IMG/VR virus record: IMGVR_UViG_3300028888_000085
Coordinates: 34,608-98,607 of that record
DNA from: a virus
Taxonomy: Duplodnaviria > Caudoviricetes
DNA length: 64,000 bases
Strand: one strand, 5' to 3'
Shown here: positions 3,000 to 62,082 of the stretch, piece after piece
Layout of the letters: each line of letters opens with the position of its first letter
How positions within the stretch are numbered: the stretch's first letter is position 1
Notes under the pieces: generated by a model
Told to the model about the DNA's origin: nothing
Database searches by the model: none
Seen by the model: only the letters and a program-made list of their open reading frames with translations
Position numbers and translations under genes: made by a program

Positions 3000-3101
3000 C
3001 AAATTTGCCCTGTACTAAAAAGTTACGTCCTTATCCTGGTGAGTACACACATAAAACAAAAATGCGTCAGAACGCAAATTAGACCCATTTACGGATGTGT
3101 T
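3000..3101 (+). repeat. Dispersed ~100-bp intergenic element, copy 1
   Basis: CAAATTTGCCCTGTACTAAAAAGTTACG...CAAATTAGACCC, similar to 15223-15325 and to the reverse complement of 39040-39142. Confidence 0.85.
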
Positions 3102-7812: not shown

Positions 7813-7938
7813 ACCTTTACCCTCTACCTATGAGTTACATGTGAGTAACAAAAAGACCAAAAAATCTTGGTCTTGTCTCTTAGTTCTATCATACTCATGT
7901 GTGTCTTTTGTTTCACAGCACCATAAGTTGAGCGTGCC

Positions 7939-15222: not shown

Positions 15223-15325
15223 CAAATTTGCCCTGTACTAAAAAGTTACGACCTTACCCTAGTGAGTACACGTCTAAAACAAAAAATCGAGTACAGAGCA
15301 AATTAGACCCCTTTACGGACGTGTT
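15223..15325 (+). repeat. Dispersed ~100-bp intergenic element, copy 2
   Basis: Similar to 3000-3101; follows hairpin AAGGGGATT...AATCCCCTT. Confidence 0.85.
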
Positions 15326-15361: not shown

Positions 15362-18300
15362 ATGCCGACAGTGACTTCTTCGACAGTGAATGCAGTGACA
15401 CAGACAAATGCCGTGATGGTAACAGACAACGATGTCCGTCAGGGCATTGATGCTTTAAACACACGTCTGCAGGAGATGCAGAAGAAGTCTGACGAGAACA
15501 TGGCCAAACTCTGGGGAAAGACCGCAGAGGCTTTGAATGGTGTTCTTCGCTCGATTAAAGAGACACAGAAAACGAATGACGCACTTGCGTCTGCGATGGG
15601 AGAACTTTCCAAACAGATAAGCAACAAGAACTCACAGCAATCTCAGCCTAGCACACAGACACCAAATCCCCAAACGGTACAACCTACAAGACCATTACCA
15701 TCTCAGAATGGTAACGATGCGTTACCTGCAATGGCGAACTCAGGCAGGGGAAATGGAAGTAACGGCAGTAAGTATGACCAGAGTCGAACCCCTGTTGGAA
15801 CACAGGCAGAGAATTTCAAACAGGCATTGGACAATTCATTACGTATGCAGCGTAATGACCGTTCTGACCAAAATACTTCCGGTCTTGGAGCAAGAGCAGA
15901 TAATAAAACAGGTCAGACATCACAGGAACAGGATGCTCTTGCCTTACAGCAGACTGCTGCCAGGAATGCAGTTATTGTCGAGGTTTTAAAGAAAATACAA
16001 GGTATTTTAACCAACAGTCTGTCCAAGTTTGAGCAGTTCAATGATGAGATGCGGCGTAATTACCACATGTCACGGGATACTTCTATTGCCATTATGGACA
16101 GTACGGTTGAAGCCCGTAATTCCGTTCGTGACAGTCTTGGTGTCCATATTTCGATGGAGGAATCTGTCAAGGCAATTAAAGAACAGGTGTTGAACAATGG
16201 CGTCAATGCTGAACATTTGAATTCAACGACTAGGGATATGGTCATCGGTTTGAACAAGTTCGGTATGAAAGTTGACCAAAACACCTTGATGACTCTTGAT
16301 GCCATGGACATGGACAATGAGTCACAGAAACAGATAATGGACCAGTTTATGAAGATGTCCTCAGGCGATAACACGTATCGTGCTGATGTTTCAAAGATGA
16401 ATGAGGACTTCAAGTATCTGGTTGCCCTGTCACGTCAACAGGGGATGAATAATGCAGAAACCTCAAAGCTAATGAAAGAGTATGGGGAAGCAGTTCAGCA
16501 GAACATGGCTTTGGGTATTTCTCAGCAGGAAGCACAAAAGGCAGCCATGGATGACATCCGAAAAGATATTCAGGGTATCGATATGCGTGGCAAAGACCAA
16601 CTGTTTAAAGACCTGTACAACATAGGTTCTCATGCAGGTGCGTCTGTCAATGAAAATATGTCCATGGCTGAAATGGTGCGTGCAATACGTAACGACATTG
16701 CAAATGGGAATACAGACGTTAAACGTGCGTTTGATGAACGTATTCAGCATGACATGCAGCAAGCAGGAATCACGGGTGACCAGAAAGCAATGGATAACGT
16801 GATGAAGCTGGACCGCATCATCAATGGAAAAGAAGGCACCATGGTTACCGACACGGAACAAGCCAAAGAAGGTTTTGAGACTCCGATGTTGGAACGGTGG
16901 AAAGATAATGTTGAGACATGGATAGGGTCGAAGTTTACAGGAGCTGTCGGCTCTATGTGGGGATTTAATGGTAAGGGTTCGACATCAGAAATAATCACCA
17001 AAGGTTTCAATGCAGTCATTGCCATACTGAACGCACAGACTATCGGTAACTTTTTAAGTAACACAAAGATTGGCAACCTTATGAAAGGAAGCGCCGGAAA
17101 GTTCGGTAATCTTTTAAAGGGCGGCGTGACCAAACTCGGCAGCGGTCTGTTAAAAGTGGCTGGACCTCTCGCTATTATCGTTGGTTTGGTAACAACGATT
17201 GTGGAGTTGGTCAAAGGAATAAAAGAGTCGAACGAGACAGAAGCAGACAGAAAGGCAAAACAGGAAGAGCTTGACCGTGTTACAAAGGAACTTAAAGATA
17301 ATCGTCAACGAGCTTCGATGGCTCAAGTCGAGGGAGACGCTTCGTCACAAAAAGTCTATGGAAACCGTGCCGCCTCTCTTGCTACACAACAGCAACAGAT
17401 TGCAGGTGAATTGATTGAAGCACGCTATCAGGAAAATGTCGCTAAGTACGGCACTGTCGGAACAGCCGTTGGTGCAGTTGGTGGTGGTGTTGCAGCAGGA
17501 ATTGCATCTGGCGGAAACCCTGTTGCCATCGGTGCAGGAATAACAGGCGGTGCACTCGCAGGTAAAGCCGGTGGTGGTGCTCTGGCAGGAGCGTTGTCTG
17601 ACAAGAATACAGCTTCAACACGTGCTGATGTTATTGCGGCAGCCAATGCAGGTCAGGTGTATTACAATTCAAACGGAAACATTATTGACAAGGACACAGT
17701 AACACATGTCGGAGAGGGCGGAAATGTAGAGGTCATTTTACCTGCGAACAATCCTGAACGTGTTAAATACCTTGCAGGTGAGATGTCAAAACGTGCAGAT
17801 GTGTCCGAAGAGGTTCGTGATTCATTCAATTCGATGGCAGATAGTTTGTCTTCAAATGAAAGAAAAGTTTCGACCGACGAAACTAACGGAGAGCTTTCTG
17901 ATGGGGCAAAGTCTGTGATTGAACGTCTGCTTAGGTTCGCTTCATCGAATGCGGGTAAGAAATATGAATTACATGGAAAAAAAGACCCTCGTGACGGTCA
18001 CGTGTGGGACGGATTTGTCTGTAATCAGTTAGTGTCCAATGCTTTTAAATCCATTGGCCGGAATGATTTGTTCAGTCGGTTTTCTTATGGCGTCTCGTCC
18101 ATTGTGTTTGGTTACGATGTCAAAGAAAAGCGTGACAAAAAAGGAAATGTAACGCGTCCTGCAGGACATGTGAAAGGATTGCTTGAGGATGATGACTGGG
18201 TGAGCGTCGGGTATGACGACATCAAACCAGGTATGATTGTCTTTACCGGCGTCAAGGAGAAACCCGGTCATGTCGGAATTGCATCCGGTGATGGGAAATA

Positions 18301-19129
18301 CTGGAATGCCTCCGGCAGTGCGGGGGATTACAGCACACCTGAAGTGTTTCTTTCCACAAGAACCAAAAACACCGGCGTTGTGAACAACCAAATTCCAAGA
18401 AAGAACTTTAAGTATGCAGGATACTTTAAATCGCTCTATGGAAACTATGCAAAAGCGTTGGACTTTGTTCCGAGCGGCGTTGCCAGTGAGACAGATTCCA
18501 TCGGTGACGAAATCGTCACTTCACAGCTTCCGCCTGTTAAGTCTTCTCCTGTAGTGTCCTCTGGTGGAAGTAACGAAAGTGGGTTAAATTCGTTGGGTTT
18601 GTTCGACATGATATCCTCGTTCGATATGTTGGAAAACAAATACAGGCATCAAAGTCGAAATGGTGTCTTAAAGGATGCTCTTGTCCGTGGTATTTTAAAC
18701 AGCAAAGCGGGTTCATTGTTTACGAATCCAATGATGAGAAAATTGCTTGGTAAAAACTTTGTCGATGTTACGCAGGATGGTGAAATTGCAACTTTGAATC
18801 CGTTACGAACATTCCGTGTAAGAGACGGAATGCCTACAGCATTCGGTTCTCTTGAAGAGGGATTTGAGGATTACATCAAATCCATAGAACATAATTACGC
18901 ATCGTTAAAGGAATTGACTGCACGGCAGCAGTTGAATTATCTGATGGAACAATCCATTATTAACAAGAATGAGGCTGAGTCTATTGCCGTTACTGAATCC
19001 ATGCAGGAACTTGCACGGGAAGTAAAGGAATTGACCAAGGAAGTTAAAGAACAAAACCGAACAAGCCGTACAAATGAATTACGAAATGCAGCTCTGCCTT
19101 TACGACCGGCGGTCGGTTTTGGAGTTTAG
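15362..19129 (+). CDS. Tape-measure-like protein with NlpC/P60 peptidoglycan hydrolase domain
   Basis: Long helical Q/A-rich protein with G/A-rich hydrophobic stretches; FVCNQLV...KPGMIVF...GHVGI (Cys/His motif). Confidence 0.7.
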   Translation: MPTVTSSTVNAVTQTNAVMVTDNDVRQGIDALNTRLQEMQKKSDENMAKLWGKTAEALNGVLRSIKETQKTNDALASAMGELSKQISNKNSQQSQPSTQTPNPQTVQPTRPLPSQNGNDALPAMANSGRGNGSNGSKYDQSRTPVGTQAENFKQALDNSLRMQRNDRSDQNTSGLGARADNKTGQTSQEQDALALQQTAARNAVIVEVLKKIQGILTNSLSKFEQFNDEMRRNYHMSRDTSIAIMDSTVEARNSVRDSLGVHISMEESVKAIKEQVLNNGVNAEHLNSTTRDMVIGLNKFGMKVDQNTLMTLDAMDMDNESQKQIMDQFMKMSSGDNTYRADVSKMNEDFKYLVALSRQQGMNNAETSKLMKEYGEAVQQNMALGISQQEAQKAAMDDIRKDIQGIDMRGKDQLFKDLYNIGSHAGASVNENMSMAEMVRAIRNDIANGNTDVKRAFDERIQHDMQQAGITGDQKAMDNVMKLDRIINGKEGTMVTDTEQAKEGFETPMLERWKDNVETWIGSKFTGAVGSMWGFNGKGSTSEIITKGFNAVIAILNAQTIGNFLSNTKIGNLMKGSAGKFGNLLKGGVTKLGSGLLKVAGPLAIIVGLVTTIVELVKGIKESNETEADRKAKQEELDRVTKELKDNRQRASMAQVEGDASSQKVYGNRAASLATQQQQIAGELIEARYQENVAKYGTVGTAVGAVGGGVAAGIASGGNPVAIGAGITGGALAGKAGGGALAGALSDKNTASTRADVIAAANAGQVYYNSNGNIIDKDTVTHVGEGGNVEVILPANNPERVKYLAGEMSKRADVSEEVRDSFNSMADSLSSNERKVSTDETNGELSDGAKSVIERLLRFASSNAGKKYELHGKKDPRDGHVWDGFVCNQLVSNAFKSIGRNDLFSRFSYGVSSIVFGYDVKEKRDKKGNVTRPAGHVKGLLEDDDWVSVGYDDIKPGMIVFTGVKEKPGHVGIASGDGKYWNASGSAGDYSTPEVFLSTRTKNTGVVNNQIPRKNFKYAGYFKSLYGNYAKALDFVPSGVASETDSIGDEIVTSQLPPVKSSPVVSSGGSNESGLNSLGLFDMISSFDMLENKYRHQSRNGVLKDALVRGILNSKAGSLFTNPMMRKLLGKNFVDVTQDGEIATLNPLRTFRVRDGMPTAFGSLEEGFEDYIKSIEHNYASLKELTARQQLNYLMEQSIINKNEAESIAVTESMQELAREVKELTKEVKEQNRTSRTNELRNAALPLRPAVGFGV

Positions 19130-24870: not shown

Positions 24871-25102
24871 GTCTCAGAGGTATGGCATTTATTATGGGTG
24901 TAATACCTCTAAATCACCCGTAACGAATGCCATGCTAATGAGAACAGACTAAGTTCTTTATTGAACTACGCATCAACTTTAAGAAACGTTTGAATGCCTC
25001 CCCAGTTCATTCAATTCTGTTGATGCCTTGTCGAGGGGAAGTCGTATCGCCCTTACGGGAGGTACGCACTACACCAACTTTCATGTTGGTGGCTTATAGC
25101 GA
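24871..25102 (+). ncRNA. Orphan cassette A: single 36-nt repeat fused to anti-repeat and omegaRNA-like scaffold
   Basis: Repeat GTCTCAGAGGTATGGCATTTATTATGGGTGTAATAC (24871-24906); scaffold homologous to 48414-48608. Confidence 0.85.
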
Positions 25103-29924: not shown

Positions 29925-30025
29925 GTCTCAGAGGTATAGCATTTCTATTGGTGTGATACTTAACAAGTATGACCTGACCAACTACCGCTGTCTCAGAGGT
30001 ATGGCATTTATTATGGGTGTAATAC
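29925..30025 (+). CRISPR. Mini array B: 2 repeats, one 30-nt spacer
   Basis: Repeats 29925-29959 (degenerate, 35 nt) and 29990-30025; spacer TTAACAAGTATGACCTGACCAACTACCGCT. Confidence 0.85.
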
Positions 30026-30224
30026 CTCTAAAACACCCGTAGTAAATGTCATACTGAAGGGAACAGACTAAGTTCTTTACTGAACTATGCATCAACTTTA
30101 AAAAGAAACGTTCTGATACCTCCCCAGTCAGTTCAATTCTGTTGATGCCTTGTCGAGAGGAAGCCGCACTGTCGTAAATGATACTGCGCATCACATCGGC
30201 TCTCATGCTGATGGCTTATAGCAA
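30026..30224 (+). ncRNA. Anti-repeat + omegaRNA-like scaffold B
   Basis: CACCCGTAGTAAATGTCATAC pairs with the repeat; homologous to the other four scaffolds. Confidence 0.85.
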
Positions 30225-48608: not shown

Positions 48609-48829
48609 GTATTACACTCATAACAAATGTCATACCTCTGAGACAGTCGGTACGGGCAAGAGTATTACACCCGTTACAAATGTCATACCTCTGAGACCAC
48701 GTATCCGTTGAGTCAGACGGTTTCGTCGTATTACACTCATAACAAATGTCATACCTCTGAGACTAATCAGTGCCATATCACCACCTCACCTGGGTATAAC
48801 ACTCGTAACAAATGCCACGCCTATGAGAC
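48609..48829 (-). CRISPR. Array D: 4 repeats; spacers 17, 30, 30 nt
   Basis: Repeats at 48609, 48662, 48728, 48794; transcribed consensus GTCTCAGAGGTATGACATTTGTTATGAGTGTAATAC. Confidence 0.93.
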
Positions 48830-48890: not shown

Positions 48891-48931
48891 ACCTTAACAC
48901 AGAACCTCACTGCATAAATTTACAGCACCAT
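48891..48931 (-). promoter_or_regulatory. Phage promoter motif for array D-scaffold-iscB
   Basis: ATGGTGCTGT-N22-TGTTAAGGT. Confidence 0.6.
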
Positions 48932-61396: not shown

Positions 61397-61592
61397 TTGC
61401 TGTAAGCCATCAGCATGAAAGCCGATGTAATGCGTACCGCCCGTAAGGGCGATACGGCTTCCCCTCGACAAGGCATCAACAGAATTGAATGAACTGGGGC
61501 GGTATTCAAACGTTTCATTAAAGTTGATGCATAGCTCAAAAGAGCTGCGTCTGTTCTCATTAGTGTGACATTTGTTACGGGTGTTTTTAGAG
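61397..61592 (-). ncRNA. Anti-repeat + omegaRNA-like scaffold E
   Basis: Homologous to scaffolds A and D. Confidence 0.87.
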
Positions 61593-62014
61593 GCACCACA
61601 CCCATAACAAATGCCATACCTCTGAGACACCTATGGCTGTATGAAGACCTGTCTGTATGTATCACACCCATAACAAATGTCATACCTCTGAGACAATCTC
61701 TCTGGGCTCTGTATACGACGCCCCGTATCACACCTGTAAGAAATGTCACACCTCTGAGACCAGTTGATAGCGCACCCAACCCTCAGGCGTGTATCACACC
61801 TATAAAAATGTCATACCTATGAGACCTGAGAAATGATTGTCTGTGATTCCGGACAGTATCACACCTGTGTTAAATGCTATACCTCTGAGACAGCGCAAAC
61901 ATAGCGGTCACGAGATGCTCAGTGTTACACCTATGTTAAATGTCATCCATCTGAGACCTCCTCATTAAAAAGTGGGCGAAATTGCCAAGTCAATAAATGC
62001 CATACCTCTGATAC
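61593..62014 (-). CRISPR. Array E: 6 repeats plus 1 partial; five 30-nt spacers
   Basis: Repeats at 61593, 61659, 61725, 61791, 61856, 61922; partial repeat 61992-62014. Confidence 0.93.
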
Positions 62015-62042: not shown

Positions 62043-62082
62043 ATTATACCACAGTTCTTTAAATCAAAGCTCACAGCACCAC
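62043..62082 (-). promoter_or_regulatory. Phage promoter motif for cassette E
   Basis: GTGGTGCTGT-N21-TGGTATAAT (consensus extended -10). Confidence 0.75.

Follow-up and report, generated by a model that had tools for sequence, protein, structure and literature searches.

A large phage of the rumen gut carries one gene for IscB, a small relative and likely ancestor of Cas9, and its genome also holds at least six copies of a structured element, each fused to a small CRISPR array. I propose that every one of these elements is a guide-RNA scaffold gene of the phage's own IscB, one nuclease being served by at least six dispersed cassettes, and I put the probability of this reading at about 80%. 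The argument is built from the copies themselves, the covariation in their stems, their homology to omegaRNA, the intact IscB gene beside one of them, and the terminators and promoter-like box that accompany them. From these I infer that the cassettes are expressed, that their RNAs are processed and can load the nuclease in trans, and that the nuclease so loaded cleaves DNA. The system is best read as a phage CRISPR-associated IscB, a kind that has been published. The service of one nuclease by at least six dispersed array-plus-scaffold cassettes looks to be unreported: the literature yielded no description of such an arrangement, nor of this 607-amino-acid protein, and nothing usable on stand-alone or trans-acting omegaRNAs.

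The window analysed is a stretch of 64,000 nucleotides, part of a 98.6-kb viral record (G000 in the coordinates below) whose completeness CheckV estimates at about 38%. The sequencing runs that bear the sequence are sheep, goat and cattle gut metagenomes from 11 studies.

The cassettes and the nuclease gene

A search of the window with the stretch flagged in the first-pass annotation returned five full-length copies (A to E), and a sixth, F, lies elsewhere in the parent record (G000:21768-21993, - strand). The copies are 79-90% identical to one another, hence 10-21% diverged. Each scaffold element is about 230 bases long, and its parts come in the same order in every copy: a 36-nt CRISPR-type repeat, an 8-nt linker, an anti-repeat and about 160 nt of structured sequence. 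What varies, reading in the direction of the element, is the number of further repeats upstream.

Cassette A (24871-25102, + strand) has the fused repeat and no other. That repeat (24871-24906) and the linker are followed by the anti-repeat, which forms the 3' strand of helix P1 (24914-24943), the nexus hairpin (24952-24967), helices 4 and 5 (24970-25026), the two strands of a candidate pseudoknot (24999-25003 with 25035-25039), helix 6 (25041-25067), the terminal hairpin (25072-25091) and helix 8 (25092-25100). Cassette B (29925-30222, + strand) has one additional repeat, a degenerate one at 29925, then a 29-nt spacer; its element runs from the terminal repeat (29990-30025) to the end of the scaffold at 30222. 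In copies C, D, E and F the extra repeats are separated by unique spacers, mostly of 29-30 nt. Cassette C (39458-39964, - strand) has six repeats, the two farthest from the scaffold degenerate and with collapsed spacers, then three spacers of 29-30 nt; its element (39684-39458) begins with the terminal repeat, 39684-39649. Cassette D (48416-48829, - strand) has four repeats and three unique spacers of 30, 30 and 17 nt, with the terminal repeat at 48644-48609 and the element at 48644-48416. Cassette E (61399-62014, - strand) has six full repeats and a partial one, together with five spacers of 29-30 nt; its terminal repeat is at 61628-61593 and the element at 61628-61399. The arrays hold 16 unique spacers in total.

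Copy D ends 3 nt before the ATG of iscB (46567-48390, - strand), and its leader continues into the gene; this is exactly where IscB guide RNAs are encoded. The other five copies lie 9-60 kb from iscB. The first-pass annotation had called the scaffolds orphans, which holds for position and for nothing else: the cognate gene lies within this window, immediately beyond copy D, and since IscB adjoins that copy, the scaffolds are not truly orphan. The 3' tail of copy C retains the iscB ribosome-binding site and a remnant of the start codon with one base deleted, so the cassettes away from the gene can be traced to duplication of a locus like D.

The protein itself is intact. It has 607 residues, with RRXRR/PLMP, RuvC and HNH parts, and Pfam recognizes RRXRR (PF14239, E = 8e-44) and HNH (E = 2e-13), the match to RuvC being weak. 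The residues D58, E213, H281/H282, N296, H400 and D403 are catalytic and occupy invariant columns in an alignment with 17 relatives. It thus has what marks the effector of CasIscB: an N-terminal PLMP/RRXRR, a split RuvC, an inserted HNH and unbroken catalytic residues. Against solved OgeuIscB structures it scores E = 2e-42, and against YnpsCas9 (9K31), the sole small Cas9 returned, E = 2e-9. Insertions stand at four places in all, one of about 56 residues at the REC site and the others at three further places. Among 5.8 billion proteins its sole close relative is one 97% identical, a scan of viral contigs seeded with the single protein sequence gave no relative, and there is no second IscB in the 98.6-kb record. 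An AlphaFold2 model from an 18-sequence alignment was poor (mean pLDDT 52.7, pTM 0.44).

A Cas9 effector was considered and set aside: the protein is 607 residues long, starts with RRXRR/PLMP, has at the REC site an insert of just 56 residues or so, and finds its best structures among the IscBs. A type II adaptation module (cas1, cas2) fared no better, for Cas1 was not found in the 98.6-kb record, about 38% of the phage genome, by a search that detected it in control genomes.

Putative signals for transcription accompany most of the cassettes. Downstream of B, C, E and F, at distances of 12-65 nt (about 50 nt for B, 65 nt for C and 25 nt for E), lies a G+C-rich hairpin, followed in B, E and F by a run of T; in C the stretch read stops at the first Ts. 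Four of the five copies away from iscB thus appear to end in intrinsic terminators. No clear terminator lies downstream of cassette A. At the other end, a 9-nt box occurs eight times in the window, where 0.53 occurrences are expected, and is likely to mark a promoter class specific to the phage. It starts at 7915, 24339, 25872, 33419, 48922, 56599 and 62073, one more copy sits inside a spacer of array C, and in the parent record it is also found at G000 3779 and 16456. Every box of the window except the one in the spacer has a -10-like element, often TG-extended, 24-27 nt after it. The box at 48922-48930 (- strand) is about 93 nt upstream of array D, with its -10-like element 24-27 nt downstream, and that at 62073-62081 (- strand) is about 59 nt upstream of array E and is followed by an extended -10; none stands directly before A, B or C. 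In RNA libraries (runs X19 and X20) there are contigs that span phage genes and a portion of scaffold D, though such contigs carry no strand, ends or level and could reflect DNA carry-over.

Arrays, strains and targets

A related strain (L013) has an IscB 97% identical to this one, and yet the spacers of its array D are entirely different, some of them only 18-21 nt long. One 30-nt spacer of array D here (48698-48727) is found in L013 (L013:10861-10890), where it sits in the equivalent of array C. Arrays therefore turn over and are exchanged, and they do so between strains with no cas1 or cas2 in view. The scaffolds differ as well. Those of the two D loci (48416-48644 and L013:1029-1258) differ at 13% of positions, as against 3.6% of positions overall and 9.7% of fourfold sites in the adjacent iscB. 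By this comparison the scaffold changes faster than silent sites, either through exchange between cassettes or through selection to diverge.

This traffic invites a different account, in which the cassettes are non-autonomous homing or mobile elements, selfish passengers from the iscB locus that lack the nuclease. The guide nearest the scaffold would direct IscB to cut cassette-free alleles in co-infecting relatives, and repair would copy the cassette in, much as the guide RNAs of IS200/IS605 elements serve to preserve the transposon that carries them. The iscB remnant in copy C, a sign of duplication from a locus like D, suits it; so do the difference in cassette content between strains and the spacer that has changed arrays. 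Cassette A, with its single repeat, would take flanking DNA as its guide, and IscB was ancestrally a transposon protein (PMC8730458). Homing, however, has no need of arrays with several unique 30-nt spacers, transposon ends and TnpA are not seen, and no cassette-free allele was recovered for comparison. I regard this account as unlikely, and were it true the RNAs would still be functional and constrained in structure.

The spacer nearest scaffold D (48645-48661) has 17 nt, and all other scaffold-proximal spacers have 29-30. The guide length reported for IscB is about 16 nt, close to the exceptional spacer of D. Within the first full spacer of array C (39816-39845) the promoter-like box appears as its reverse complement (39821-39829, + strand), a coincidence whose probability is about 0.003 for 16 spacers and which hints that this spacer was taken from the promoter region of a related phage. 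Rival phages are the probable targets. In the searches made, none of the spacers had a protospacer: arrays C and E gave chance-level matches to GenBank phages, the 98.6-kb record contains no self-target, and three spacers used as exact patterns found nothing in viral contigs.

Two other features of the window were seen in passing. A Dda/RecD-like helicase gene (40754-43021, - strand) encodes 755 residues here and 1113 in the related strain (L013:6649-9990), where the product matches Hom_end and LAGLIDADG domains, and a cattle-gut run has 1059 extra letters in the gene at 41992/41993; the difference in length looks like an insertion polymorphism of an intein or homing endonuclease. Two stretches of about 100 nt (3000-3101 and 15223-15325) are 76-90% identical, the second spanning the start of a 1255-residue open reading frame (15362-19129).

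Scaffold structure and kinship with omegaRNA

The first-pass annotation listed stems in which both strands change and pairing survives, and those it named within the scaffold are all as described. In the nexus hairpin, the pair at alignment columns 85:96 is U-A in A, B and C and C-G in D and E; it is C-G also in the L013 orthologue of D (D2), and U.G, an intermediate, in F and in a partial second cassette of L013 (C'). Three pairs of helix 5 (125:143, 126:142 and 127:141) switch together, with B, C and D on one side and A and E on the other; F sides with A and E, and the related strain has a third version, likewise paired. The terminal hairpin (207-212 with 219-224) comes in three different versions, all fully paired, and in helix 6 the pair 179:198 goes from U-A to C-G in B. 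For the repeat and anti-repeat the claim stands in part. Covariation is real at pair 15:61, which is G-C in A, A-U in D and G.U in the other four copies, but it does not tie a repeat to its own cassette: nearly any repeat pairs with nearly any anti-repeat at 25-28 of the 28 positions of the P1 duplex, 93% of whose cells are paired. The duplex is thus not private to a cassette.

The check proposed for these changes, alignment and RNAalifold, was applied to the five copies and then to seven sequences, and both times covariation exceeded the controls. RNAalifold finds eight helices with 75 pairs. Among the five copies, 13 pairs change on both sides, a number that none of 500 column shuffles reached (5.9±1.6) and that falls to 0-2 once the 3' partners have been slid along by 1-3 columns. 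The seven sequences are A to F and the L013 orthologue of D, and with five candidate pseudoknot pairs included, 17 of 80 pairs change on both sides, as against 10.0±1.9 in shuffles (none of 500 reaching 17) and 1-4 when slid. In these seven, 95.5% of cells are paired, a figure that overcounts events to the extent that exchange between cassettes has spread a compensated stem, the sequences being paralogues or close orthologues. Variation is as common in paired columns (62 of 160) as in unpaired ones (24 of 75), from which it follows that change is frequent but accepted only when compensated. Each copy folds much better than its own dinucleotide shuffles (z from -2.9 to -8.2) and is 7-22 kcal/mol more stable than its own reverse complement, as would suit transcripts that run the same way as the arrays.

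To what family do such RNAs belong? The HEARO model of Rfam (RF02033) finds nothing in the window at its gathering score, and nothing around copy D at E values up to 10. A covariance model of the full element does better in the opposite direction. It matches the 5' leader of an ordinary IscB gene of 420 residues (L014:1243-1492; 39 bits, E = 9e-11), with the nexus, the conserved single-stranded motifs, helix 6 and the terminal hairpin all in register, and that leader in turn scores 64.5 bits (E = 8e-13) with HEARO, whose cut-off is 83. Run on 240 IscB loci, the full model gave just five weak matches, and because it matched so few, a model of the core was built that omits the repeat duplex. The core model matches 17 IscB loci from phages and from gut or soil bacteria, always on the strand of the gene, and 15 of the 17 matches stop no more than about 35 nt from the iscB start. 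The scaffold, finding the leaders of ordinary IscB genes in this way, is by sequence and predicted fold a derivative of omegaRNA/HEARO. Scaffold D has no match among GenBank phages. A 17-base pattern from the scaffold hit 19 loci in viral contigs, none of them carrying the scaffold, and the lone match of the model there was partial (L031, 12.7 bits).

Seven phage sequences and 16 ordinary IscB leaders make an alignment of 23 that, being fitted to the model, leans towards the structure; even so, its controls fall far below the observed values. Changes on both sides affect 36 of 46 core pairs (25.5±2.3 in shuffles, 10-19 when slid), and 91% of cells pair (68% shuffled, 29-42% slid). Helix 4 is nearly invariant in the phage, but the wider family shows covariation there. 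The family core is retained in all copies: where the 16 ordinary omegaRNAs have conserved columns (30 in all), the phage copies match them in 192 of 210 cells, and two paired columns that changed together, so that pairing is compensated, account for 14 of the 18 departures. A core pseudoknot of 5 bp, joining the loop of helix 5 to a segment after the long-range helix, is probable. Its middle pair, 136:170, is C-G, U-A or U.G in six of the seven phage sequences and a mismatch in B, and ordinary omegaRNAs have other complementary versions at the site, as judged by eye and by script.

Set beside canonical omegaRNA (Rfam RF02033; OgeuIscB structures 7UTN and 7XHT), the phage scaffold has the long-range 3-bp helix, nexus hairpin, helices 4 to 6, terminal hairpin and single-stranded motifs, probably the pseudoknot too, and in copy D alone the position directly 5' of iscB. 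Three things set it apart, besides its going unrecognized by the Rfam model. The guide-adaptor hairpin of the canonical RNA has grown into the 28-bp repeat:anti-repeat duplex. The multi-stem insertion in helix 5 is missing, leaving about 42 nt inside helix 4 in place of about 100. And canonical guides come from the transposon flank, whereas those of the phage come from arrays.

With the scaffold placed in this family, it is very hard to credit that the cassettes are decoys, a form of RNA anti-CRISPR imitating the crRNA and tracrRNA of a host Cas9 or IscB so as to sequester the host's nuclease or supply it with guides of the phage's choosing, for although the geometry of 36-nt repeats and 30-nt spacers and the first bases of the repeat look type II, and adaptation genes are absent from the record, the scaffold is homologous to IscB leaders and not to Cas9 tracrRNAs, an intact cognate IscB is encoded beside copy D, and a degenerate 20-nt pattern of the repeat has no exact match (the one kind sought) in 185,579 species-representative genomes.

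It is no more credible that the distant copies are dead leftovers of duplicated iscB loci, their covariation a product of shared ancestry or gene conversion. They are indeed paralogues in one genome, relatedness of that sort can inflate shuffle tests, and copy C does carry its remnant of the iscB start. Yet sequences that have diverged by 10-21% should not, if decaying, keep nearly all their pairs, nor show 17 pairs changed on both sides where slid controls show 1-4. Nor would decay leave wobble intermediates in F and C', preserve the conserved core columns in every copy, retain terminators, or let paired columns vary as freely as unpaired ones while tolerating only compensated change. The original contention, which takes the RNAs to be functional and structured as opposed to decaying, is supported by the two-sided changes, the covariation in the 16 IscB leaders, the conserved columns, the terminators of B, C, E and F and the box before D and E.

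One nuclease, many scaffolds

CRISPR-associated IscBs with an array, an anti-repeat and a scaffold upstream of the ORF have been described as DelIscB (PMC12660989) and CasIscB (PMC13180657), both reports citing Altae-Tran et al. 2021. The phage system resembles them in that array, anti-repeat and omegaRNA-like scaffold occupy non-coding RNA upstream of the ORF, a repeat/anti-repeat hairpin joins array to scaffold, and no adaptation genes lie nearby; copy D with its iscB has the very layout of DelIscB. The likeness to CasIscB is one of layout. Unlike either, the system is borne by a phage, has at least six cassettes to one nuclease gene, five of them 9-60 kb away, and has a protein of 607 residues with its four insertions and its single close relative.

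Cas9d of type II-D (PMC9755519, PMC11903963) is comparable: another small RuvC-HNH effector from the IscB/Cas9 lineage, it is accompanied by a CRISPR array and by a scaffold RNA that is large and structured, and cas1 and cas2 are often missing. The phage protein differs in fitting IscB structures far better than it fits YnpsCas9 (by the E values given above), in keeping the N-terminal PLMP/RRXRR and in having at the REC site no more than the one insert.

Mini-CRISPR arrays borne by viruses are thought to target rival elements, and they usually make use of a host effector or of a phage Cas12 or Cascade. Those arrays and the CRISPR systems of huge phages (PMC11656645) share with the present case short phage arrays and a want of adaptation genes. 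Here, in contrast, each array comes joined to a scaffold RNA of its own, with the phage IscB as effector.

How might such a system work? In the proposed mechanism the 5' strand of the lengthened guide-adaptor duplex would have been copied repeatedly to make a small CRISPR array. A transcribed cassette would yield array and scaffold as one RNA, whose last spacer, last repeat, anti-repeat and scaffold would fold in cis as a natural single-guide RNA and load IscB. The spacer-repeat units farther upstream, perhaps once the long duplex has been cut, could pair in trans with the scaffold of any cassette; they could do so because repeats and anti-repeats are compatible from cassette to cassette. The stems would be free to drift in sequence but must keep pairing, the RNA fold supplying much of the role that the REC lobe plays in Cas9, and it is this need to keep pairing that would account for the compensatory changes.

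A further idea, which I offer tentatively and think may well prove wrong, is that the phage has replayed, independently, the step from omegaRNA to crRNA and tracrRNA, and has taken it further: its one IscB gene would be served by at least six self-contained genes of array plus scaffold spread over the genome, their scaffolds equivalent in structure and driven apart in sequence. One possible reason for driving them apart is avoidance of recombination between cassettes.

CRISPR-associated IscBs are viewed as living intermediates between the guide RNAs of transposons and the two-RNA system of Cas9, and how they use an RNA that joins array to scaffold is an open question (PMC12660989). The phage amounts to a natural experiment on that question: six diverged, structurally equivalent scaffolds for one nuclease, which mark off the stems where pairing is all that is needed from the nucleotides that stay fixed. 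The set is a ready-made mutational map for shrinking IscB guide scaffolds or ridding them of repeats. It also suggests that a single small nuclease might be programmed from many unlinked loci of a phage.
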